From IMG/VR virus record IMGVR_UViG_2713896905_000008: a DNA stretch of 42,302 nt. One strand, written 5' to 3'. The translations under genes were made by a program, and so were the position numbers. The DNA is from a virus. Lineage: Duplodnaviria; Heunggongvirae; Uroviricota; Caudoviricetes. A model generated the notes under the pieces. It was not told the origin of the DNA and searched no databases. It worked only from the letters and a program-made list of their open reading frames with translations. Positions 2,634 to 38,930 of the stretch are shown here, piece after piece (position 1 is the stretch's first letter; every line of letters starts with the position of its first letter).

Positions 2634-3134
2634 GATAAATGCGGGATGCTACTTGCTCTTGTTACTGGACAACGTTTAGGCGATATCTGCAATTTGAAAT
2701 TCTCTGATATCTGGGACGACATGTTGCACATTACTCAGGAAAAAACCGGTTCAAAACTTGCTATTCCGCTTAACCTGAAATGCGATGCTCTGAATATTAC
2801 CCTTCGTGAAGTTATATCTCAGTGCAGGGATGCTGTTGTTAGTAAATATCTGGTCCATTACCGTCACACAACCTCTCAAGCAAACAGAGGGGACCAGGTT
2901 TCTGCAAATACTCTGACAACGGCTTTTAAAAAGGCCAGGGAAAAATGTGGCATAAAATGGGAGCAAGGAACTGCGCCCACATTTCATGAGCAGCGATCTC
3001 TGTCAGAACGGTTATATCGGGAACAGGGTCTGGATACGCAAAAGTTGTTAGGTCATAAATCCAGAAAAATGACCGACCGATACAATGATGATCGTGGTAA
3101 AGACTGGGTTATCGTAGATATGAAAACAGCATAG
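2634..3134 (+). pseudogene. 5'-truncated tyrosine integrase (paralogue of the int at 41175-42302)
   Basis: Translation LLALVTGQRLGDICNLKFSDIWDD...HEQRSLSERLYREQGLDTQKLLGHKS...DRYNDDRGKDW aligns with the C-terminal ~165 aa of the full integrase at the window end. The N-terminal two-thirds are absent; the upstream ORF sequence is unrelated. Confidence 0.8.
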
Positions 3135-3144
3135 AAAATAGCCA

Positions 3145-3180
3145 GTTTTGGGGAAGGGTTTTGGGGAAAGTTTTGGGGAA
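3145..3180. repeat. three tandem copies of GTTTTGGGGAA between the truncated integrase and the icd terminator
   Basis: cagTTTTGGGGAAGGGTTTTGGGGAAAGTTTTGGGGAAga read directly. Confidence 0.7.
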
Positions 3181-3190
3181 GATTTTACAT

Positions 3191-3224
3191 CATCATAAAA
3201 CAACGGGCGTGTTATACGCCCGTT
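3191..3224 (-). terminator. intrinsic terminator following the icd 3' end
   Basis: Perfect stem AACGGGCG/CGCCCGTT with loop, followed on the minus strand by GTTTTAT. Lies about 20 nt past the icd-like stop. Confidence 0.6.
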
Positions 3225-3240
3225 TCAATATTTAACACAT

Positions 3241-3414
3241 GTAGTGATTACATATTCTTGATGATCGCGTCACCAAACTCTGAACATTTCAGCAGCTTAG
3301 CGCCTTCCATCAGACGTTCGAAGTCATAGGTTACGGTCTTCGCATTGATTGCGCCTTCCATACCTTTAACAATCAGGTCTGCGGCTTCAGTCCAGCCCAT
3401 ATGGCGCAGCATTA
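3241..3414 (-). pseudogene. icd: duplicated 3' end of isocitrate dehydrogenase gene (icdC-like att-site duplication)
   Basis: Minus-strand translation [54 protein letters not shown] is the Icd C-terminus. Homology stops abruptly at about 3414, where A+T-rich phage DNA begins. Confidence 0.85.
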
Positions 3415-3471
3415 GTTAGATAACTAAATCGTAACTATTTGACATAGCAGCATAATTTTACTAATTTGCAT

Positions 3472-3506
3472 ATAACTCATTAGCTCTTAGCATTTCCATA
3501 ACTCAT
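3472..3506. repeat. two direct copies of ATAACTCATT next to the att junction (candidate integrase arm-type sites)
   Basis: cATAACTCATTag at 3472 and cATAACTCATTga at 3497, within 100 bp of the icd/phage boundary. Confidence 0.35.
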
Positions 3507-3645
3507 TGATTATCAACATGTGTTTTTGAGTTTTGATAACCATTTTTAGCATAAAAATAGCAGTTAACATTTGCAGAAGTTAAGATCAGAGAAAATTTTT
3601 ACCCTGTAGGGTATTACGTCTTAAATGTGACTTTAATAAACAATT

Positions 3646-4479
3646 TTATTTCTGTAATCGATTTATATTAACGTAAAGCATCTCGATTAGTTCTTTTGCA
3701 TTTTTACTATAGTGCAATTCTCTATGGCAATTCGGACAAAGGGCAACACAGTTATCTGTTGTATCAGCACCACCTGAAGACAGGGGAATTACATGATGCA
3801 CTTCCAAGTATGGGCTTCCATCATTTAAATAAAACGGAGCATTTTTACCACAGTTTTCACATATACCTTTACTTTGCTGTAAAATCCAAGCTTTTACCAT
3901 CGGATCTCGGACATAAACTTTTTGTAGTCTTTCTACCTCAACTGGTTTCCTGGAGCCCTCGGGCTGACTCAACGTTTTCTTAATTAATTTACTAACCCTC
4001 ATATTCAGAAGCGATTCATCATCTGTAGGCTGAGAAAGCTCTGATAGTTCTCCACGTATTATAGACACCCAAAAACTGTCACTATAAATACCTGGAACAT
4101 TTATCAATATTCGTTTCGTTCTATTGCCGGAAGGAATTTCCTTTCTCCCCGTACGACTAAAATAAGCCTGATAACCACACATCTTCAAGCGTATATCGCG
4201 GGGGCTATTACCAATCAAAGTAAAATATTCACCAGGATGGATTTTTCTTTCATCCAAAGAATGCATATGTTTTCTGACTGATGATGACGCCAGATATACT
4301 ACGACTTGGGATACACCAGAATCAACCAACCGTTCAATGATATAATCAAGAGCGATATTGTAATCTTTGTTTCTGTCACCCGGCCCCCACGACTCAAGGA
4401 TTAGACCATAAACACCATCCTCTTCACCTATCAAACACTCAGCTTTCAGTTCAATTCCATTATTATCAAAAACATGCAT
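3646..4479 (-). CDS. mcrA: McrA, type IV 5-methylcytosine-specific restriction endonuclease (HNH)
   Basis: 277-aa translation matches E. coli McrA essentially end to end as I recall it (MHVFDNNGIELKAEC...CENCGKNAPFYLNDG...HHVIPLSSGGADTTDNCVALCPNCHRELH). Same position as in e14, next to pin. Confidence 0.9.
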   Translation of the reverse strand: MHVFDNNGIELKAECLIGEEDGVYGLILESWGPGDRNKDYNIALDYIIERLVDSGVSQVVVYLASSSVRKHMHSLDERKIHPGEYFTLIGNSPRDIRLKMCGYQAYFSRTGRKEIPSGNRTKRILINVPGIYSDSFWVSIIRGELSELSQPTDDESLLNMRVSKLIKKTLSQPEGSRKPVEVERLQKVYVRDPMVKAWILQQSKGICENCGKNAPFYLNDGSPYLEVHHVIPLSSGGADTTDNCVALCPNCHRELHYSKNAKELIEMLYVNINRLQK

Positions 4480-24745: not shown

Positions 24746-25099
24746 ATGAACAGGAGTTCACAAATGAATAGTTATGAATGGGAATGGCTTTTGAACAAAG
24801 ATGACACCCTATACTTTTTCCCCGTAGGCCATTCTGTAGAAGGTAATTACAAAATTCACTTTGAGTTGAGCGGTAGTTGTAACCTTAGAGTCTCAGATGC
24901 TGAATGGCATGGTAAACCTGTACTGCTGTTCGAATACTTCGATGAAGATGATGACCGCCCTGCAATAATCGAAATATTAGAAACAACCACTACAACTGTG
25001 GAGGCGATGATCGCACATCTGAATAGTATCGATAGTATTTACCATGAACCGATTTACAAAGCTGTTTACGAGTGGGCTGTAAAGTTTTTCTATCGATGA
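24746..25099 (+). CDS. hypothetical acidic protein (opposite-strand cargo)
   Basis: 117 aa, A+T-rich, on the strand opposite the late operon; contains DEDDDRPAIIEILETTTTTVEA. Confidence 0.5.
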   Translation: MNRSSQMNSYEWEWLLNKDDTLYFFPVGHSVEGNYKIHFELSGSCNLRVSDAEWHGKPVLLFEYFDEDDDRPAIIEILETTTTTVEAMIAHLNSIDSIYHEPIYKAVYEWAVKFFYR

Positions 25100-25142
25100 T
25101 ACTTCGTTATCTTTCTGGTATTCACAATACCTTTACATATTA

Positions 25143-25769
25143 ATGACATGCCAGCACAATACTGTCACTTACAACCGTTCGGATTACCTAGAGAAAAGTA
25201 TGATTCAGGATTTACTGATCGAAGCAATTAGTCACGATAGGATGCATAAAAAGTTAAATGAACTGAATGGCTACTTCTACAATCGCAAACATGAAACACA
25301 AATACGTGATGAGTTAGTTGTTATACTCAATCAAATCAGCACACTAACTGCTTTAAGTGAGCATCCAAAACTCGGTATCGGCGCTGTTGACATATCACTT
25401 TATAACCAGTCGATATTAACGTCTGAACATAATGGCAATGTTGCAACCATCGAGATAAAACACCATTACCCAAAGGATTTACTTTATCGGCAAGTTCAAG
25501 AAGACATCATTTCCGATATTTCAAGAGTAATAGTTTCACCAACTACACATTTTATCCATATAATCCAGCAAAGAACCAGGATTAATACTCCTTCTTTTGG
25601 CCAAGTGAAATTCCTTGAACGTGATGCAAGTGATATCAGCACTTATGTGCAATACCTTGAAGAGCTAAGTTCATTTCCCAGTAATTTTCATAAAAAAAGT
25701 ATATGTATTGAGGTACTTGGTGAAATTATGTCGACATATACCTTTAACGTATATTCATTTGACAACTGA
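25143..25769 (+). CDS. hypothetical protein (opposite-strand cargo, co-oriented with 24746-25099)
   Basis: 208 aa, A+T-rich, no family recognised. Start may be at an internal Met. Confidence 0.5.
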   Translation: MTCQHNTVTYNRSDYLEKSMIQDLLIEAISHDRMHKKLNELNGYFYNRKHETQIRDELVVILNQISTLTALSEHPKLGIGAVDISLYNQSILTSEHNGNVATIEIKHHYPKDLLYRQVQEDIISDISRVIVSPTTHFIHIIQQRTRINTPSFGQVKFLERDASDISTYVQYLEELSSFPSNFHKKSICIEVLGEIMSTYTFNVYSFDN

Positions 25770-25790
25770 TCAATTTGACAATTTTATTGC

Positions 25791-26048
25791 TTAATGGTTA
25801 GTTCTCTCTGCATCTATTTTACGAATATCAGCTTTATCCCGATTGCAGTTAGCCAGTGCAGACAACAGACTCACATTCAGCTCCAGGCTGGCACCATACG
25901 TCAGAGGATTTGGTATGAACGGTACAGGTGTTTCAGAAGTCAGACTAGTCGGTAATGTTGTAGCCGGAGTGCTCACGTAAACTGTCCGCGTACTTCCGCA
26001 ACCGCTCAGCAGCGGCAGCAGGCACAAGGCGTGCAGCACAATCATCAT
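25791..26048 (-). CDS. Rz1-like outer-membrane spanin lipoprotein (overlapping Rz in another frame)
   Basis: Lipobox LLPLLSGCGS after a signal-like MMIVLHALCLLP; Pro/Thr-rich mature part. Confidence 0.55.
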   Translation of the reverse strand: MMIVLHALCLLPLLSGCGSTRTVYVSTPATTLPTSLTSETPVPFIPNPLTYGASLELNVSLLSALANCNRDKADIRKIDAERTNH

Positions 26049-27406: not shown

Positions 27407-28582
27407 ATGGATATAACTTGTTTAGAATGTGGCAATGTTCTTGACGACCCAACTGTAGCTTGCGATAAATGCGGCGCCACGCCTCATGTTGTAGTGCTGG
27501 GCAAACAATCGTACTTTCCTATTGGTGCTGTAACAGCAAATCTTGAAAAAAATGATTCAAGAGCATTTGATTATCGATTAGGTGAAGTTTGGGATCTAAA
27601 AAATGAAGTCACATCTGAATTCATAACCAGAATTGAGAAAAAATTTAGCCGAAAAAACAAATTTCATAACTTCCTAGACTCAGATCACAACCCTTCATCC
27701 ATTCCTACGATCCTAAAAAAATACATTAATAAAAATAATGAATTCATTGATTTATCTAGAGCTATAATAGAGAAGCTTAAACATAATGCTAATAACGAAT
27801 CGAGAGTTGCCCAACTTCAGGGGGGGAGCGTTGTTTTCATCCACTATAAGTCTACCGAACCAGAGGATTTGGGAAAACTTCTAATCGTAATGGTTGATAA
27901 ACAAAGCGCCTATGACTTTGATTCGGATAAGTTGACCCCAACAAGATTAAATCCAATTAATACCGATGCCTTACGGCAGGCTGCGATGTTCGATTTAACT
28001 TTATTCGAAGCCAGTTATCCAGAAAACAAGGGTGACTCATATGTACATTTCTTGCAAGGTAAATCTAAAAGCGATTTTTTCAAAGACTCATTAGGTTGCC
28101 GACATGATTCGGACAATAAAAGAAGCATTCAGCAATTATTCAGTGCTATAGATATTTTTGCTAGTAAAAACTCACTCGGTCGTGTACTGCGTGATACTAT
28201 TGACAATGAAGTTAAATCCTTACTGGAAAAAAAATCAAAAGATAAATACGGAAATAAGTCCGTTAAGATAGAGGATATTTCAAAAATAATTGACTCATGC
28301 CTGACTGATTCACACAAATGTAAGGGAACGTTTGTCGATTTTGTTAATCTTAATGGTTTCCAGATTGATCCTCAATTTGAACCAACTCCTAAAGCAGCTG
28401 AAAGCGCGCTTACAATTGAAGTGGCAGATAACGACAATAATTTTAAGTTGAAAATAATGCGTGGAGCTATTGGAGACGAAAAGTCAAATAAGCCTGTAAT
28501 TCTCACTGACAACAAATGCGAAATTGTGATAAAATTGAGTCAGGCAAATTATGATGAACTCAAAAGATATAGAGACAGCTAA
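27407..28582 (+). CDS. zinc-ribbon protein with NdpA/YejK-like (NA37-type) region; first gene of a cargo pair
   Basis: 391 aa. N-terminal CLECGN...CDKCG four-Cys ribbon. Central region aligns by eye with YejK: GGSVVFIHY / GGFVLFCHY and YVHFLQGKSKSDFFKDSLG / [22 protein letters not shown]. A+T-rich. Confidence 0.6.
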   Translation: MDITCLECGNVLDDPTVACDKCGATPHVVVLGKQSYFPIGAVTANLEKNDSRAFDYRLGEVWDLKNEVTSEFITRIEKKFSRKNKFHNFLDSDHNPSSIPTILKKYINKNNEFIDLSRAIIEKLKHNANNESRVAQLQGGSVVFIHYKSTEPEDLGKLLIVMVDKQSAYDFDSDKLTPTRLNPINTDALRQAAMFDLTLFEASYPENKGDSYVHFLQGKSKSDFFKDSLGCRHDSDNKRSIQQLFSAIDIFASKNSLGRVLRDTIDNEVKSLLEKKSKDKYGNKSVKIEDISKIIDSCLTDSHKCKGTFVDFVNLNGFQIDPQFEPTPKAAESALTIEVADNDNNFKLKIMRGAIGDEKSNKPVILTDNKCEIVIKLSQANYDELKRYRDS

Positions 28583-28584
28583 TA

Positions 28585-29799
28585 ATGACAATTGCTGATG
28601 ACTTATCAAGATTAGCGCAGATTATTAACGGAGCCTCAAGCAGAGTTGAGGGCTACTACACTGTCATAAGTCTTGAAGAAAGCATTGTTATTGTAAATAG
28701 TTCTGAAATAATTAGACTGTTACAATCTATAGGTTATAAAAAGGCAACAAACTGCATCGAAAATAATGAAATTTGGCTAGATCGCCAAGCTTCATCTTGG
28801 GATGACGCTATAATTTATGAGAATGTTGAGTCTTTTTGGTCTAGAGTAAACACCCAAAACGCTCTTCCGAAAAATTATATCATCGGAACGCCGTTAATAC
28901 TCCCTACTTCTAAGAATGAAAGCATCGAAAAAATCCATATTTTCTTTATGTGGAAAGATATCCTTTCATTAATTGCTGATCATCATAACAGTGACTGCTC
29001 TGTCTTATTTTTCACCAATGAAGACAAAAGTTATACAGTCGAACTCACGCATTTTTTACAATATAGCGAGATTAATCGCTTATCGAACTCGTCTCTTAAA
29101 TATGAAATTATAAAGGAGCTTCTCGACACAATAAAAATCAATGATTTACACAAAAGCGAGCGCAAGCTCGTTATACGTTCAGCCATAAACGAAGTATTTA
29201 AAGCAAATGGTACATTCAATTTCTTTGACTTGCTTAACTCTACTGAACTCGTCAGAAAAAAATATGATGAACTATATGAGATTTACACAAAGAGGTTTTC
29301 TGTAAATAAAATTCTTAACGAACTCGATGAGAAAAATCTTGAGTTCACGAGTAAAATTAACGAATTCATATCATCTAATCAGACAAAAGCATTGACTATT
29401 CCCGGTGCATTAATAGCAGCTGGTGGCTTAGTGAAGGCTAATGAAACAACCGAAGCAATATTGATTATCGCAGGACTTTGGATGATAAAAAAAGTCAATT
29501 ACATTTCTATTGAGATATTCAATGAAACATTCGACAACTTACGTTCTCGAGTGGAGTCCGCTTTCGATAAGTATTTAAAGTTTGAAGAAAATAAAGAAAT
29601 CAAAGATAATGCAGATAGTATTAAGAGTAGCATTACAGGTTTGATTGATAAAGCTAAAAAAAGGATGAGAACTGTTAAATATCTCGCATCAGCCATGTTT
29701 TATGGAGGCCTTATTTACGTTGGATATAAACAGTTCCCAGTCTTTTTTGAAAAATCGGCAGTAAATCTATTTTATTTTTTATGCCATACTATAAGCTAA
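28585..29799 (+). CDS. protein with C-terminal two-helix membrane anchor; second gene of the cargo pair
   Basis: 404 aa, starts 2 nt after the upstream stop. Hydrophobic helices ALTIPGALIAAGGLV...AILIIAGLWMI and YLASAMFYGGLIYVGY. No enzymatic motif recognised. 3' end overlaps the Q gene stop convergently. Confidence 0.6.
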   Translation: MTIADDLSRLAQIINGASSRVEGYYTVISLEESIVIVNSSEIIRLLQSIGYKKATNCIENNEIWLDRQASSWDDAIIYENVESFWSRVNTQNALPKNYIIGTPLILPTSKNESIEKIHIFFMWKDILSLIADHHNSDCSVLFFTNEDKSYTVELTHFLQYSEINRLSNSSLKYEIIKELLDTIKINDLHKSERKLVIRSAINEVFKANGTFNFFDLLNSTELVRKKYDELYEIYTKRFSVNKILNELDEKNLEFTSKINEFISSNQTKALTIPGALIAAGGLVKANETTEAILIIAGLWMIKKVNYISIEIFNETFDNLRSRVESAFDKYLKFEENKEIKDNADSIKSSITGLIDKAKKRMRTVKYLASAMFYGGLIYVGYKQFPVFFEKSAVNLFYFLCHTIS

Positions 29800-30150
29800 C
29801 ATTGCTAAACAGCCGTCAACAAACCCCATGGCAGTCTGCAATTCCTTCCTAATTGTGCCATCTGAACATCTTCTCTTCTTGGCAATAGTGCGTAATGAGA
29901 TACCAATAACAAAGTGAGCTATGAGCAGCTCATATTCCTCTGGTTTATACTTTCGCAACCGAGCCACACAACCGTCTATCATGATGCCTTCATCATCATC
30001 ACACTGGAGACGTGACTTTTTACCGTGTGGTAAAAGTCCCTTGAAACCAGCCGCTATCGGCTGCCAGTCCACACCACTATTTTCTGCTGCAGCCCATGCT
30101 CCCCAGCGGTCCAATACTTCATACATATCACGCATCAACTTTCTCCACAA
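29779..30150 (-). CDS. late-gene antiterminator Q (QuuD / phage-82 type)
   Basis: 123 aa matching the QuuD family as I recall it (LDRWGAWAA...SIAAGFKGL...CDDD...CSDG). Confidence 0.8.
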   Translation of the reverse strand: MWRKLMRDMYEVLDRWGAWAAAENSGVDWQPIAAGFKGLLPHGKKSRLQCDDDEGIMIDGCVARLRKYKPEEYELLIAHFVIGISLRTIAKKRRCSDGTIRKELQTAMGFVDGCLAMLAYSMA

Positions 30151-33362: not shown

Positions 33363-33823
33363 TCTTCACCCGATGCAGCGCGCTTGCTGCTTTTCCGTAA
33401 GCACCGCTCACGACGCGTCAGAAAATTGTTTCGTTCTGGCTGGGAGTGGCTTTCACGGAATGCCGCCATCCACACGGTTGCAGCACGACGGTATAAGCCC
33501 CTTGACTCCAGTTCTTCAGCCTGGCGGGTCAGGCACAAAATCACCCGGGGATCGTTAGTGCCGACATAGAAATTGCGCACAGGTCTGGTTTCTCGAACTG
33601 GTTGTGGTTCCGGTTCCTGCGCTCTCTCAGTCAGGCGCGGGAAATGTCTGCGTGTATCTCCTTCACAACGGTGAGCCACACGCCCACTCTGACGTAACTT
33701 GCTTGCTGACTGCAGAACGCGCTGCCGTGAGTAACCAGCAAAAGCATCCGCAATGTCTCCGGAAGTGCACCCCGGATGGGCTTCAATGAATTTCTGAACG
33801 TCATTTAACAGACTCATGATCAC
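33329..33823 (-). CDS. hypothetical phage protein
   Basis: 164-aa ORF between the replication and methyltransferase genes; Arg-rich. Confidence 0.35.
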   Translation of the reverse strand: MIMSLLNDVQKFIEAHPGCTSGDIADAFAGYSRQRVLQSASKLRQSGRVAHRCEGDTRRHFPRLTERAQEPEPQPVRETRPVRNFYVGTNDPRVILCLTRQAEELESRGLYRRAATVWMAAFRESHSQPERNNFLTRRERCLRKSSKRAASGEEWYLSGNYVGA

Positions 33824-34761
33824 CCCCTAAATCCTGCCGGGATCTGGCTGTAGTCCACGTTGTCGTAACTGGCTTTGAAGTACGGGTCTTCACGTTTTTC
33901 TGTGTGCGTGCTGACGGACGGCGATAAGCGCAGGGAAAGCTCATCCCATTTTTCCCGCAACTTCGACGGGCTGAGCACGTTACGGCACCAGAACGGATCG
34001 CGGCTGACGCGGCTGTACATCTCGCAGATTTGTTTGTGAGTACGACCATCCTGCACACACATCAGGCGAATTTCGTTTGCCCAGGCTGTCCAGTTAGGTT
34101 CTTTGGGACGAACCACCTCGCCGTCACATTCGGCGGCCTGCTCGTACAGGGCGATGATTTTTTTCCAGAGCCACTGTGCGCAGGTCAAATCATCCTGCGT
34201 CCCCCACTGGCGCTTTTTAGGGCTGAATACAACCGCATCAGGATGGCGAGTTAAAAAATCCTGTTCATCCGTCTGCGTGTCCGGTTGCGAAGCGTCCGGA
34301 CGAGAAGGTTTTTTATCTGACGGATCATGTTTTGATTTTACTGACGGATCCCCGCCAGATTCTGACGGGTGAAAACCCGCTTTTTTGCCAGATTTCGACG
34401 CATCAAATTTTGACGGGTCAGATTTTGATGCGTCAGATTTTGACGGGTCAGAATCTGACAGTTGAGAAAATGCCGCTGCCTGAAGCTTCGCAACGTTAAG
34501 CTGATAAACATTCGACGCATTGCGGTTACCCTGGCGACGCGCCTTACGCGTTAACCAGCCTTCTGCTTCCAGCCGTGCGATAGCCGTCCTGACGGTACTC
34601 ATCCCCGCGCCAATCTGACGGGCAATAGTTTCAATTGATGGCCAGCACACACCTTCGTCATTACTGAAATCAGCCAGGCGGGCCATAATTGCCACGCTGG
34701 ATAATTTCATGCCTGACGCTGCGCAACCATCCCATACATAGCCGGTTAATTTAGTGCTCAT
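33820..34761 (-). CDS. replication initiation protein (O-like) containing iterons
   Basis: 313 aa; N-terminal winged-helix-like region; central low-complexity SDSDPSKSDASKSDPSKFDASKS encoded by tandem DNA repeats. Confidence 0.6.
   Translation of the reverse strand: MSTKLTGYVWDGCAASGMKLSSVAIMARLADFSNDEGVCWPSIETIARQIGAGMSTVRTAIARLEAEGWLTRKARRQGNRNASNVYQLNVAKLQAAAFSQLSDSDPSKSDASKSDPSKFDASKSGKKAGFHPSESGGDPSVKSKHDPSDKKPSRPDASQPDTQTDEQDFLTRHPDAVVFSPKKRQWGTQDDLTCAQWLWKKIIALYEQAAECDGEVVRPKEPNWTAWANEIRLMCVQDGRTHKQICEMYSRVSRDPFWCRNVLSPSKLREKWDELSLRLSPSVSTHTEKREDPYFKASYDNVDYSQIPAGFRG
34356..34463. repeat. iteron array (candidate replication origin) inside the replication gene
   Basis: Six or more roughly 15-bp units of CAGATTTTGACGGGT type (CAGATTCTGACGGGT, CAGATTTCGACGCAT, CAAATTTTGACGGGT, CAGATTTTGATGCGT, CAGATTTTGACGGGT, CAGAATCTGACAGTT). 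Confidence 0.6.
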
Positions 34762-34770
34762 GACCGACCT

Positions 34771-35109
34771 CTATTTCCCTGAATTTACGACGAAACTGTT
34801 CGAGCGGGCTGAAGCACTCATGCTCATAGCCTTCACGGAGGTAGATAACCCGTTGTGTTTCCGGCTCCCAACGAATGACTCTGACGGGCACTCCGTAGTG
34901 ATCTTTGAACCAGCGGTTAACTTGTCGCAAAGGACTGTCTCCTTCTGCCGGTTGAAATCACCCACAGCCCACTCAGCAAAGCTGTGGGTTACAATTTCCC
35001 TGTCACCTGGTACATTCACTGCATAGCAATACTCCACCTTCGCTTTTCCACCCGGTACAGGAAGCGCAATCAGTTGCGAGCGACGGTAGTGTGTTGTTAA
35101 ACTGTTCAT
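34771..35109 (-). CDS. hypothetical early protein (YmfM-like by size and position)
   Basis: 112-aa ORF between the CII-like and replication genes. Its C-terminal third also reads plausibly in another frame, so the boundary is uncertain. Confidence 0.4.
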
Positions 35110-35696
35110 GCGTTAGTTTCTCCACAACCAGAAGCAATCGACGCCACGACGCCCGGAGCTGCACACTCGCGGGCGTCATTACTTTCTGAAATGCAAAAAA
35201 TTTTGTAGACAAGTGCTGCATGCTCCTGCAGCTTCGAAATTGAGAGGTACAGCTCGTCGTTAATTGCTGTCTTCTCATGCGGTTCCACTACACCGTCTTC
35301 GATTGCTGAACGAATCTGTTTTGAATAACTGCCGATCTGTTCAATGACTTCCAGCAGACGCTGGTTAATATCGGCGTTGTCCACATCCTCGACGTCAGGA
35401 AGAGACACAAAGACGCCATTTGCAGACTGCGCCACAGCGTCAGCAATGAAGTGAGTGCCACCAGCACGTTGTAAAATCATTGCCCATCCCAGCGGGAAAA
35501 TTTGATCGCCATCGGCACGAAGGCGATTAAATAATGCGTTCTCTGTTACATCCAGCCAGTCAGCTGCTTCAGCGTAACCCCCCGGCAACGCTGCGATAGT
35601 TTTTCTGACAGCTTTCACGTACCACTTAGGCTGTTTTTCTACTTTCCAGTGATGCTTACCCACGGCTATCTCCTTAAAACTGTGGTTACTTTTCAT
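35106..35696 (-). CDS. early regulatory protein (YmfL/CII-like, putative)
   Basis: ORF-track span 35106-35768; likely start at MKSNHSFKE. Second gene of the rightward early operon after cro. Confidence 0.45.
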
Positions 35697-35934: not shown

Positions 35935-36069
35935 AGCTTTCTCCTTTTTAGGTAGTTAAGTTGTTACGAGTTGCAAGAATACAACATTAACAACTTTTAT
36001 CACAACTTTTAGGTGTTGGAAAGCTAAAACATAAAGTTGTAACCTCATCAAAAAAGAGAGGGATATGTT
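35935..36069. promoter_or_regulatory. OR-like divergent promoter/operator region between cro and cI
   Basis: Multiple copies of the half-site ACAACTT / AAGTTGT (AAGTTGTtacg..., ACAACAttaACAACTTttatcACAACTTtt..., ataAAGTTGTaac) in the 135-bp intergenic region. Confidence 0.6.
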
Positions 36070-36756
36070 GTGAAAACACTGGCAGAACGATTAAAGATAG
36101 GTAGAGAGAAAGCTGGCATGAGCCAAGCTCAACTAGCTGAAAAAATTGGACTTTCACAACAATCTGTAGCCAAAATAGAGAATGGCGAAACTCTACAACC
36201 GCGCAAAATTAAAGAAATTGCAAAAGTTTTAGGTGTATCACAAAAGTGGTTACAACTTGGTATTGAAGACAACGCATCCATACCTGATCTTGTTGTAAAA
36301 GAAGCAGAAAGCACCGCATTAGACCCCGATATTTTCGTAAACATTCCTGTTTTAGATGTCGAGTTATCGGCAGGTAACGGATGTCTGGCTGAAATAGTTG
36401 AATCAGCTATTGACTGGTTTCCGTTAAGAAGAGCAGATTTGAGAAAATCTGGCGTATGTGCATCTAATGCCAAGATCGTAAAAATATGGGGGAACAGTTT
36501 ATTACCGGTTCTCAATAATGGAGATCTTGTTGCCGTTGATATTTCTCAAACCATTCCTATTCGTGATGGCGATCTTTATGCCGTACGAGATGGTGTATTG
36601 CTAAGGGTTAAAATACTTATCAACTTACCTGACGGTGGCTTGATTCTTAGAAGCTTCAACAAAGATGAGTACCCAGATGAAATACTCACCTTTGAAGATA
36701 GACGAGCCAGAATTCATGTTATAGGTAGGGTATTCTGGTCATCGCGAACTTGGTAA
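36070..36756 (+). CDS. CI-like prophage repressor (HTH plus LexA/S24 peptidase-like domain)
   Basis: 228 aa; N-terminal HTH MSQAQLAEKIGLSQQSVAKIENG; C-terminal S24-like region (IWGNSLLPVLNNGDLVAVD). Probable GTG start. Confidence 0.8.
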   Translation: MKTLAERLKIGREKAGMSQAQLAEKIGLSQQSVAKIENGETLQPRKIKEIAKVLGVSQKWLQLGIEDNASIPDLVVKEAESTALDPDIFVNIPVLDVELSAGNGCLAEIVESAIDWFPLRRADLRKSGVCASNAKIVKIWGNSLLPVLNNGDLVAVDISQTIPIRDGDLYAVRDGVLLRVKILINLPDGGLILRSFNKDEYPDEILTFEDRRARIHVIGRVFWSSRTW

Positions 36757-37659
36757 TGCATCGAAAAGCATTTCTTCAGAAATAATTTTAAGTTTTGCAC
36801 CATTATCATCCCTATAAGATATAGCTTTTTCGATCTTCCTTCCGTGACTTGAGAATTTCCAATCACGGGAGGAAAGCGTCCCAATTACTAAAAAATCCAA
36901 CTTTTGAGTAATTCCACTACTGATGTTCCCACCAGCATTTTTAATCAAATTTTCAACTACGGCTCTCTTTCCTGCAACAAAAGTGCCTGTAAGACAATAG
37001 GTTTTACCCTCTAACTCTATCGAAGCCCCTACATCAATAGGCAGCCTGGTCGCCAAACCATCCACCACCCCACTTTCCAAGTCACATCCTGTGAAGTCTA
37101 CTAATGCCTTATGTAGAGTTAAACTCTCATCTTCAGTAATAACCCCATCTTTAAGAATTTCCTTTACAAGTGCATAAAGTTTTTTTCCTGGGTAGTTGTT
37201 CTTCAAAGCTCCATTTTGCTCAAGCCACCAATTAAGATATCTTATTTCTTCTTGAGTTAAGTTCCGATCAGCAATTAATCCTTTACATAGTCCATTAAGT
37301 AAATGGACATCTACATCCTTGGAGTAAAAATCAATTTCAGGGATATCAAGAATTTCCCTCTGTATTTGGAGAAGGCTATTTTTAAGGTCATCACGTTCTT
37401 CTGATGTGATTATTCCATCCGCAAGAATATCCGACACCCGTGCTGATAGACTTTTTATAACTCCATTATTGATAATCTGCTTTGCTTCAAGTAACCATGT
37501 ATCTAAGTAAAGAACCTCCTCTTCACGGACAACTCCATCTGCAATGATTCCATCAATGATGCTAATCAAGTTAGCAAATAACTTGTCCCGGTTCTGTGTG
37601 TAATTAAAAGCGTAAAGCGCGTCTTCCATACAACCTCCTTTTTTTGATAATCCTTGCAC
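36739..37659 (-). CDS. BRCT-domain protein with four N-terminal ~35-aa repeats, unknown function (cargo at rexAB-equivalent position)
   Basis: C-terminus LEGKTYCLTGTFVAGKRAVVENLIKNAGGNISSGITQKLDFLVIG...KLKIISEEMLFDAL parallels the LigA-type BRCT fold. N-terminal repeats each contain ..ADG.IT.EE...L.. A+T-rich; convergent with cI. Confidence 0.55.
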   Translation of the reverse strand: MQGLSKKGGCMEDALYAFNYTQNRDKLFANLISIIDGIIADGVVREEEVLYLDTWLLEAKQIINNGVIKSLSARVSDILADGIITSEERDDLKNSLLQIQREILDIPEIDFYSKDVDVHLLNGLCKGLIADRNLTQEEIRYLNWWLEQNGALKNNYPGKKLYALVKEILKDGVITEDESLTLHKALVDFTGCDLESGVVDGLATRLPIDVGASIELEGKTYCLTGTFVAGKRAVVENLIKNAGGNISSGITQKLDFLVIGTLSSRDWKFSSHGRKIEKAISYRDDNGAKLKIISEEMLFDALPSSR

Positions 37660-37692
37660 TCCTTGACTACACGTTCAAACCACATAAAGTTG

Positions 37693-37721
37693 TTGACAAT
37701 GTTCAAAATCACAACTAAATT
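37693..37721 (+). promoter_or_regulatory. pL-like promoter candidate with flanking operator half-sites
   Basis: TTGACA (37693-37698), 17-bp spacer, TAAATT (37716-37721). Flanked by AAAGTTGT, ACAACT and ACAACTT motifs shared with the OR-like region. Confidence 0.5.
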
Positions 37722-37880
37722 ACAACTTAAAGATGTTAAAAACAACAAACAGGCAGGACGCCCACGAAGTAGCCGCCTGGGGCATATGAAGTCCAGGATG
37801 ATTCGTTAGCAACAAAAAAGCGCCCTACAGGACGCTTAGCTCTTTAACAATCTGGTCCCCATCAACAAGTAACTGATAAC

Positions 37881-38102
37881 TTGAGGAGGTGTGAAATGCA
37901 CAAAACAGAACCAAAAATCGTCGCGCCCGGATACACAAATGAGGAAATTTACGAGTGGATGGCAAAGAAGCTGGCAGCTATAAACCAGCTTCGTGAAGTG
38001 CTGTCTTATCGACAGAAAACAATAGACTCCTTAAAAAAACTGGATCAGGAAATCACGGTTTTATCACAGGATGTTACTTTAGATATTGTGCAGACAAATT
38101 AG
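37881..38102 (+). CDS. small hypothetical early protein
   Basis: About 68 aa from MHKTEPK; first ORF downstream of the pL-like promoter. Not Arg-rich, so not N-like. Confidence 0.35.
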   Translation: MRRCEMHKTEPKIVAPGYTNEEIYEWMAKKLAAINQLREVLSYRQKTIDSLKKLDQEITVLSQDVTLDIVQTN

Positions 38103-38508
38103 GATCCCATTCATTTTCGTCAAAATCATCAAAGTGATGAATTTGTGATCTCCAGTCTCGATAATCTAAAAATTTCTGGGCGGTTACGCTTATTTTATCA
38201 AGTGTGAGTTCATCCTGAATTGAAAGAAGAAGTTCATCAAATTTCATCTCATTAATCTGTTTTGGCATCCAGTGATGCTTCATCAGAATAAGGTGAACCA
38301 GAGCCTTTTTCCCATTCAACTGATTATAGGGAGTGCCGAATTTCTTCCGGTGCTCATGTAAGACAAGGTCCAGAAGAGTAAGTAATGTTGCCCTTGATTC
38401 AACTTTGCTTATTTCGACTGATGACACTACCCCACTGATTTCAATGCCCCGATACTTTCCAACATTTTCACAGTGGGATTTGTACAGCGTATAGATATTA
38501 CCGGACAT
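38074..38508 (-). CDS. hypothetical protein with Rx6H motif (possible HEPN-like)
   Basis: 144 aa, A+T-rich, opposite strand to the surrounding early genes; C-terminal RDWRSQIHH. Confidence 0.4.
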   Translation of the reverse strand: MSGNIYTLYKSHCENVGKYRGIEISGVVSSVEISKVESRATLLTLLDLVLHEHRKKFGTPYNQLNGKKALVHLILMKHHWMPKQINEMKFDELLLSIQDELTLDKISVTAQKFLDYRDWRSQIHHFDDFDENEWDPNLSAQYLK

Positions 38509-38639: not shown

Positions 38640-38930
38640 ATCCTTAGCGTTGTGGTGAATGCGGCTCAGCGCACGCGGGTAAAGGTTGAGGCTGACAGTC
38701 GACCTTCTGTGGATACCCACCCGCCTGGTGTGCAACCTTCGCTAGGCACCGGGAGGCGCCCGGCACCACAACTTTATGCTGTGTGTAGTCTTGGCGGTAC
38801 CAGCTTGTACCCTTGCTTCCGGCTGGTACCGTCCTTTTTACAAAACAGAGAAGAGCATCACCGGACGACGGGCTCATAACCCAATCCATCCGGGCGGCTG
38901 CCACCGCAGGTGTTCTTCTCTGTTTTGTGG
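38640..38930 (+). ncRNA. candidate structured non-coding RNA / RNA regulatory element (strand uncertain)
   Basis: GC-rich region with no protein-like frame. Nested complementarity GTTGTGGTG (38650)/CACCACAAC (38765) and GCACGCGGGT/ACCCGC..GTGTGC; hairpin GGTACCAGC-16nt-GCTGGTACC followed by GTCCTTTTTAC; stem ACAGAGAAGA/TCTTCTCTGT around a 58-nt insert. Confidence 0.35.

Follow-up and report, generated by a model that had tools for sequence, protein, structure and literature searches.

The 42,302-nucleotide (nt) stretch of viral DNA analysed here (Caudoviricetes; IMG/VR record IMGVR_UViG_2713896905_000008), called the window throughout, carries a gene for a protein of 296 amino acids (aa) with a C-terminal BRCT domain, located between the cI-like repressor gene and an operator-flanked, pL-like promoter. 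The window represents a lambdoid prophage of E. coli, and the BRCT gene is an invariable part of one type of immunity cassette, OR-cI-BRCT-OL. Relatives of it are found beside repressors that belong to three or more families and come from four or more phage lineages, P2-like, D3-like and K139-like phages included. The interval from the repressor to pL is a classic site of defence genes that lysogens express, rexAB and bstA among them, and the BRCT gene is another occupant of it. The role that we favour, with a probability of roughly 40%, is that of a sensor or adaptor that the lysogen produces, that is directed at phosphorylated DNA ends, and that acts in superinfection exclusion. The family appears to be unstudied, and a literature search found no published study of it.

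The immunity cassette and the BRCT protein

The first-pass annotation, made from the sequence alone, had described an A+T-rich gene at 36739-37659, lying in the position where lambda carries rexAB but on the strand opposite to cI and convergent with it. The open reading frame (ORF) at 36739..37659 on the minus strand was confirmed in a program-made ORF list; its upstream limit, a GTG at 37659, is probably not the true start. An ATG at 37629-37627, 10 codons downstream, is preferred because a Shine-Dalgarno sequence (AAGGAGG, 37634..37640, minus strand) lies 4 nt 5′ of it, the RefSeq product has the same start, and homologues align from that methionine. The coding sequence would accordingly occupy 36739..37629 on the minus strand, with its stop codon at 36739-36741, and its 296-aa product is identical to RefSeq WP_000389078.1 from other E. 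coli, named “BRCT domain-containing protein.” The rest of the description stands. G+C content is 38.0% in the gene and 39.9% in cI against 49.1% for the whole window, and the cI-like repressor gene (36070..36756, plus strand; HTH_3 and Peptidase_S24 in Pfam) runs toward the BRCT gene so that their 3′ ends overlap by 18 nt. The protein matches the profile phrog_3989 over its full length (E 1.5e-128; aa 2-295 against positions 2-295 of 296), a family with no known function in PHROG. Compared with a copy that is 91% identical, the ratio of nonsynonymous to synonymous substitution rates (dN/dS) is 0.055 for the BRCT gene and 0.048 for cI. The gene is thus under strong purifying selection, and a reading as a pseudogene or hitch-hiker is ruled out by the value of 0.055.

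Placement next to pL rests on the operators. Sites of the form ACAACTT-N-AAGGTGT cluster in the window only at 36002 and 36026, which form OR, and at 37679 and 37722, which form OL, with a few single sites elsewhere. The OR operators (36002-36016 and 36026-36040) are supported by the motif scan and by alignment of the conserved cI-cro intergenic region, and with them lies the cI promoter, its -35 hexamer TTGGAA (36016-36021) overlapping the operator 36002-36016 by 1 nt and being followed by a weak -10, TAACCT. On the other side of the BRCT gene lies OL-b, ACAACTTTATGTGGT on the minus strand (37679..37693), which includes a 12-nt exact repeat of an OR site and is nearly invariant in diverged loci. 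It is followed by a pL-like promoter, TTGACA-17-TAAATT (37693..37721, plus strand), which is near-consensus with 10 of 12 matches and conserved in relatives, and by OL-a, ACAACTTAAAGATGT (37722..37736), located over the pL start region; the sequence past OL-a is mosaic among relatives. Because the pL-like promoter is flanked by operators that are repeated at OR, the BRCT gene can be said to sit between cI and OL/pL, as the first-pass annotation had it. Two further operator-like sites were noted, one about 1 kb left of OL at 38768-38782 (ACAACTTTATGCTGT, with 2 mismatches to the half-site pattern) and the other inside cI at 36222-36236; they could be distant looping operators or chance matches.

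The cassette is rare among E. coli genomes and its two genes travel together. Of 5426 complete E. coli genomes 47 carry the BRCT gene, with an identity that never falls below 98.4% (100% in NCTC9038), and 48 carry the cI allele; in 1854 E. coli genomes parts of the 2.6 kb around the gene are present. The BRCT gene is thus not a core lambdoid gene, whereas it was core status that the first-pass annotation had named as speaking against its proposal. The tie to one cI immunity type is invariable. In the IMG/VR set, comprising 80 retrieved contigs with a homologue 68-100% identical, every contig has a convergent cI homologue that abuts or overlaps the BRCT gene, and the protein identities of the pair track one another (BRCT/cI 100/99, 82/84, 76/80, and 68/71%). 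The convergent pair is also present in sampled genomes of Citrobacter, Serratia, Providencia, Proteus, and Rosenbergiella. Among 50,697 isolated-phage records no close homologue was found, the best being that of K139 at 33%. Two observations can be added on distribution: the BRCT locus of strain PS1Thumoskin9 is interrupted by an IS3-family element, and a contig labelled Pseudomonas lundensis strain I31 carries an enterobacterial-type cI-BRCT cassette with a 77% identical protein, which could be due to horizontal transfer or to contamination.

How the gene is expressed was addressed through an alignment of 18 diverged upstream regions, in which a conserved block spans from the ATG to OL-a and then stops. 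Read on the minus strand, the order is OL-b, immediately followed by TTGATT or TTGAAC, a 17-nt spacer, TGcAAGGAT, an A-run, the Shine-Dalgarno sequence, and the ATG. Both hexamers are conserved, while the spacer varies in sequence and never in length, and such a combination is the signature of a promoter. In the window the candidate promoter occupies 37650..37678 on the minus strand, with the -35 hexamer TTGAAC (37678-37673; TTGATT in most relatives) and an extended -10 TGcAAGGAT (37658-37650). The centre of OL-b would then stand at about -43 from the inferred BRCT start and at about -42 from the pL start, between two back-to-back -35 hexamers. The cI promoter of this phage has the same layout, with an operator adjoining the -35 and a weak -10, and in lambda OR2 is placed likewise between pRM and pR. 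Since OL-b abuts the -35 hexamer at about -43, as in the phage's own cI promoter and in the OR2/pRM arrangement, we infer that CI bound at OL may repress pL, for the most part from OL-a at the pL start, and activate the BRCT gene, giving a product that would be expressed in the lysogen from its own weak promoter. Expression from the immunity region, which the first-pass annotation had assumed, is thus inferred from the geometry of promoter and operators. If true, this would be a second example of a CI-activated promoter, at OL rather than at OR.

The product is a cytoplasmic protein of two parts, a duplicated acidic helix-loop-helix half and a basic BRCT domain, with no membrane segment. The N-terminal half consists of helical unit 1 (aa 5-97; 37339..37617, minus strand), whose hairpins R1 and R2 carry ADGVVREEE and ADGIITSEE, and helical unit 2 (aa 98-186; 37072..37338, minus strand), whose hairpins R3 and R4 carry ADRNLTQEE and KDGVITEDE. 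Profile-profile comparison by HHalign aligned the two units with a probability of 99.7% and an E-value of 9e-26, and also related the sub-repeats (R1 to R3 at 1e-18, R2 to R4 at 3e-13, and R1 to R2 at 3e-4). Hence the four repeats of the first-pass annotation are real, and a D-G...E loop is found on each of the four hairpins; the motif ADG.IT.EE that had been ascribed to each of them is exact in repeat 2 only. In the model the helices of unit 1 span residues 4-28, 36-50, 56-69, and 76-94. Unit 2 together with the BRCT domain corresponds to the ~210-aa core of short family members, which match only aa ~105-290. The N-terminus is acidic, with an isoelectric point (pI) of 4.5, and when modelled alone it reached a predicted local distance difference test score (pLDDT) of 91, with no specific match in a fold search of the PDB. 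The repeat motif also weakly resembles the C-terminal region of YmfL/CII-type regulators (NCBIfam YmfL 1.6e-4; phrog_6499 6e-5), Phage_CP76 is matched by 5 of 41 relatives, and the window's own YmfL-like CII gene product (35106-35657, minus strand) contains EDGVVEPHE; the likeness could reflect a shared helix-loop-helix unit or chance.

The C-terminal fold proposed at first was borne out by both the hidden Markov model (HMM) search and structure prediction. The BRCT domain (aa 206-291; 36757..37014, minus strand) is basic, with a pI of 9.4, and matches PF00533 over aa 206-290 with 29.0 bits against a cutoff of 21.3, a match shared by 39 of 41 relatives. The full-length AlphaFold model, built with 51 diverse homologues, has a mean pLDDT of 86 and a predicted TM score of 0.71, and consists of nine helices followed by a beta-alpha-beta-beta-alpha-beta-alpha domain that can be superposed on solved BRCT domains. 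The top Foldseek matches are E. coli LigA and the BRCT domain of RFC1, and a sequence search of the PDB returned the RFC1 BRCT with an E-value of 2e-3. In the RFC1 alignment T214-G215, R222, and R255 fall on the Thr-Gly, Arg, and SK-Lys positions of RFC1. The residues conserved in the family are T214-G215, R222, S254-R255-D256-W257, and G263-R264-K265, and among these, in the columns of T214-G215, R222, R255, D256, W257, G263, R264, and K265, conservation is either complete or 90% or higher. It has been shown that the phosphate site of BRCT domains is in general a pocket made of Ser/Thr-Gly and basic residues (PMC10386641), and that the isolated RFC1 BRCT binds recessed 5′-phosphate DNA with a Kd of ~10 nM (PMC9293004). 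Judged from sequence and predicted fold, the domain is a single BRCT, of the same class as those of LigA and RFC1, in which the Thr-Gly, Arg, and basic positions of a putative phosphate pocket are retained. Two database names were rejected because the match is limited to the BRCT tail: “NAD-dependent DNA ligase,” for which TIGR00575 gives 28.5 bits against a cutoff of 444 and matches at model positions 584-634 only (LigA models in general match the 296-aa protein only through their last ~50 residues), and “DNA polymerase III epsilon,” given by some sources.

Family context and candidate roles

Clustered at 50% identity, the wider family comprises 2857 clusters at E<1e-3 and 137 clusters at E<1e-30, in two forms, one of ~295 aa and one of ~210 aa with one helical unit. 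About 100 loci were inspected for their neighbourhoods, and association with lysogeny genes recurs among them. In K139, a P2-like phage of Vibrio, the order is cI-orf2-glo-int, and the record annotates a lysogenic operon from PL; in Pseudomonas phi1 the repressor is followed by the BRCT gene, and in phage PG1 an S24 repressor is followed by a 149-aa gene and then the BRCT gene. In Pantoea (L097) and in metagenomic P2-like prophages (L167) it comes after a 186-type CI, in Kosakonia an HTH gene, one further gene, the BRCT gene and an integrase stand in this order, and in Aliivibrio logei the order is cI, BRCT, K+ channel, and integrase. In Sulfurimonas phage SNW-1 the BRCT gene and cII are divergent, and a thermonuclease gene comes after the BRCT gene. 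The Aliivibrio logei locus belongs to a K139-like prophage on chromosome 2 (L158 4284-7790), in which the S24-type cI, BRCT, channel, and integrase genes share one strand; the channel is a 251-aa Ion_trans protein with the sequence TVGYGD and occupies the place of the K139 exclusion gene glo.

Enzymes and channels make up the second recurrent class of partners. A K+-channel gene with a TTVGYGD filter directly adjoins the BRCT gene in five independent loci (L109, L126, L158, L167, and L169). Fusions of a DEDDh exonuclease to the BRCT module correspond to the PADLOC candidate PDC-S48, and in one protein (P0236) an AAA_11/AAA_12 helicase, an MTES_1575 nuclease, and DUF3320 are fused to the helical-BRCT module, the helicase-nuclease part being of the type encoded by DUF4011-containing neighbour genes. 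Helicases with DUF4011 that match PDC-S37 and Hhe adjoin the BRCT gene in four loci. In one of the channel-bearing loci (L169) genes for a DUF4011 helicase-nuclease, an LmuB-like ATPase, a DEDDh exonuclease, the BRCT protein, and the K+ channel follow each other in one direction; another locus (L175) has a DUF4011 helicase, Lamassu LmuB (1.9e-165), and the BRCT gene, and in the P2-like prophage L167 bSEFIR and AbiU-like genes lie between the BRCT gene and int. In L174 it is sbcD-sbcC that come before the BRCT gene. The “Brc” proteins of an integron paper are unrelated to this family, and a 2026 preprint on exonuclease defence does not mention BRCT.

From these contexts a mechanism of exclusion can be drawn. 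The BRCT domain would recognise a phosphorylated nucleic-acid end, or a nick or gap junction, of foreign phage DNA that is entering or replicating, and the duplicated N-terminal domain would provide the surface for output or for binding a partner. Such an output partner may, in relatives, be encoded alongside or fused, as a DEDDh exonuclease, a DUF4011 helicase-nuclease, or a K+ channel. No partner is encoded beside the gene of this prophage, so that sequestration of DNA ends or a host protein would be needed; the BRCT protein may thus hold the DNA end itself or work via a host factor, excluding the superinfecting phage. Expression in the lysogen would be reached by different routes, through the candidate CI-activated promoter in this prophage and, in the relatives of K139, Pseudomonas phi1, PG1, and Aliivibrio, through a same-strand position downstream of the repressor, where the gene is presumably co-transcribed with it. 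The first-pass annotation had considered it plausible that the protein senses DNA ends, phosphoproteins, or ADP-ribose in the course of superinfection, and for a sensor of this kind the domain and its neighbours provide circumstantial support. A defence role, if true, would make a bacterial BRCT domain an immune sensor of DNA ends. Going further, the helical-repeat-BRCT family might be the sensor half of an unrecognised Rex-like class of prophage exclusion systems with the effector attached or adjacent, a generalisation that we regard as doubtful. If it were true, the sensor of the enteric phages would stand alone, wired to CI by a pRM-like, CI-activated promoter at OL, and a single pair of repressor dimers would both silence pL and switch the defence gene on.

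Several observations weigh against a role in exclusion. In the window and in the 80 enteric loci no channel or nuclease adjoins the BRCT gene, and an HMM of the partner channel found no match in either. The PADLOC match of the window protein to PDC-S48 is weak (2.4e-7) and partial, and to our knowledge PDC-S48 has candidate status as a defence system. Homologues in ~30 metagenome-assembled genomes of Pseudohongiella, in two syntenic Vibrio species, in Aeromonas, and in Leclercia have ordinary chromosomal neighbourhoods, with neither phage nor defence neighbours, so that not every member of the family can be counted as a conflict gene. On the side of expression, a sigma-70 consensus scan lists no promoter on the minus strand; the proposed BRCT promoter matches the consensus at 7 of 12 positions plus a TG, and it was missed by the scan because only these 7 positions match. 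Moreover, in a prophage of E. coli RMDEC465 (L165 3688-3900) an internal deletion leaves the start of the gene and aa ~251-269, with the operators and a 92.5% identical cI retained, and one IMG/VR copy (L029) has a premature stop at codon 242. The deletion and the truncated copy mean that the gene is dispensable for carrying the prophage.

Given these points, other roles have to be weighed. It is conceivable, and in our view unlikely, that the protein is a lysogeny-stability or DNA-damage-tolerance factor, which would bind to the 5′-phosphate junctions of gaps or nicks, whether in the chromosome of the host or in that of the prophage, and, by aiding repair or limiting RecA loading, tune the cleavage of the S24-type CI and thereby induction. 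The strict linkage to, and co-divergence with, an autocleavable HTH-S24 cI, with dN similar for both genes, would be expected of such a factor; RFC1-type BRCT domains recognise the 5′ junction of gaps, the chromosomal homologues in non-defence contexts are apparently vertically inherited, and a homologue that comes directly after sbcD-sbcC (L174) points to a general role in DNA ends or repair. However, the gene also follows 186-type CI, which has no S24 domain, in Pantoea and in the metagenomic P2-like prophages, and these neighbours therefore argue for a link to the lysogeny module rather than to RecA-dependent cleavage. The 186 CI is inactivated by an antirepressor and not by cleavage. Stabilisation of lysogeny also leaves the repeated defence-gene, nuclease, and channel neighbours unexplained, and the natural deletion keeps both cI and the prophage, although a merely modulatory role would be compatible with this as well.

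Quite improbable, to our judgement, is that the gene is an early lytic gene repressed by CI, whose promoter fires upon induction or infection and whose product protects or processes phage DNA ends, for instance against RecBCD or at cos, while the transcript, which is antisense to cI where it enters the 3′ end of that gene, contributes to turning off the repressor. The candidate promoter does lie within the OL operator cluster, pointing away from pL, and transcription from it must collide with cI or be antisense to it, since the two genes are convergent with their 18-nt overlap and no strong terminator stands between them, the only candidate being a weak one at 36707-36684. Yet the conserved operator is located upstream of the -35 rather than across the promoter core, with none in the spacer or over the -10, and homologues in four other phage types are on the same strand as the repressor and directly downstream of it, in K139 within an annotated lysogenic operon. 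The least credible alternative is a signalling adaptor with an output that does not concern DNA and with a BRCT pocket that reads a phosphopeptide, ADP-ribose, or an NAD-derived signal and acidic D-G...E loops that bind a metal ion: such pockets bind phosphoserine peptides in many proteins (PMC10386641), and weak matches to TerB (PF05099; 11 of 41 relatives) and EF-hand (3 of 41) exist, but the nearest relatives by sequence and fold are the DNA-binding BRCTs of RFC1 and LigA, the domain is single and not a tandem pair, all fused or adjacent enzymes act on nucleic acids, and the TerB relationship is unsupported by fold search. A sensor or adaptor for phosphorylated DNA ends remains the reading that we prefer, at the probability given at the outset.

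Other features of the window

Directly after OL-a, the pL leader contains a conserved RNA element (37747-37805, plus strand) with a hairpin at 37776-37797. Its inner stem, CCTGG...CCAGG, shows compensatory double changes at 3 base pairs among 14 variants, which include CCGGT/ACCGG, CCCGA/TCGGG, and CCCCA/TGGGG. The element has no match in Rfam, and nothing in the whole window matches Rfam at gathering score; it may represent an antitermination signal of the nut or put type, and downstream of it no obvious N-like gene was found. Inside the leftward operon, on the minus strand, lies a gene of the ECs1072 family (38074-38508; NCBIfam 1.7e-46; phrog_5286, of unknown function), which has its own strong terminator (37837-37818, minus strand), overlaps the 3′ end of a 68-aa ORF (37897-38102, plus strand; phrog_1744), and looks like a second independently transcribed accessory gene. 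Other stretches of low G+C content (35-38%) at 1-1000, 3001-4000, 25001-26000, and 28001-30000 possibly hold further accessory genes. In the central part of a replication-protein-like ORF (33820-34761, minus strand), SDPSK/SDASK repeats make up a stretch of low complexity.

Comparison with known systems

The BRCT domains of RFC1 (p140) and LigA are the best sequence and fold matches of the window protein, whose Thr-Gly, Arg, and basic residues align with their pocket positions; the window protein differs in being without clamp-loader domains and without the adenylation, OB, Zn-finger, and HhH domains of a ligase, and the motifs SRDW and GRKIE are specific to its own family. Likeness to PDC-S48 is confined to the C-terminal helical unit and the BRCT domain, with aa 119-251 of the window protein aligning to positions 239-377 of the 411-position model. 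PDC-S48 begins with a DEDDh 3′-5′ exonuclease, whereas the window protein has a second helical unit there and no catalytic domain. Relatives that bear the exonuclease match PDC-S48 at 1e-21 to 1e-33, and carriers of RNase_T match from position 1; membership of the window protein was rejected because the DEDDh domain is absent, and it has no RNase_T match.

A homologue with the same two-part organisation is Orf2 of K139 (NP_536630), at 32.6% identity over 95% of the length. Its gene adjoins cI in the lysogeny control region and is followed by the exclusion gene glo and then int. Unlike the window gene, K139 orf2 is on the same strand as cI, in the annotated lysogenic operon of a P2-like phage; it has been annotated since the phage was sequenced, and no assigned function was found for it.

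With respect to position, rexAB and bstA both map to the interval between cI and N, a hotspot known for such genes, and BstA has a tight and repeated association with repressor loci in diverse Gram-negative bacteria (10.1101/2020.07.13.199331). BstA of the Salmonella prophage BTP1, which mediates abortive infection by itself and whose gene lies downstream of cI, resembles the BRCT protein in being one prophage product on its own, with a domain that putatively binds DNA. BstA contains a KilA-N-like domain and is expressed from the promoter of the repressor, whereas the BRCT protein has no KilA-N match in Pfam and its gene is convergent with cI. The defence activity of BstA has been demonstrated, and that of the BRCT protein is putative.

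Together with bstA, the exclusion and abortive-infection genes rexAB of lambda are the nearest known analogue in position and presumed logic. They occupy the same place between cI and OL/pL, and the BRCT gene would also share with them expression in the lysogen and a cytoplasmic component which might respond to a signal related to DNA. There is no sequence relationship, and PADLOC returned only PDC-S48 for the window protein. In contrast to rexAB, which is co-transcribed with cI, the BRCT gene is on the opposite strand with its own candidate promoter beside OL-b, and it is single in this prophage, with no membrane partner found. The lambda order cI-rexA-rexB is nevertheless mirrored by the cI-BRCT-channel order of the Aliivibrio logei prophage, and the channel of such relatives is an Ion_trans protein of the K+-channel type with a TTVGYGD filter, unlike RexB. 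If these neighbours do act together in defence, they would constitute a Rex-like pair of sensor and K+ channel with recognisable folds, unlike RexAB.

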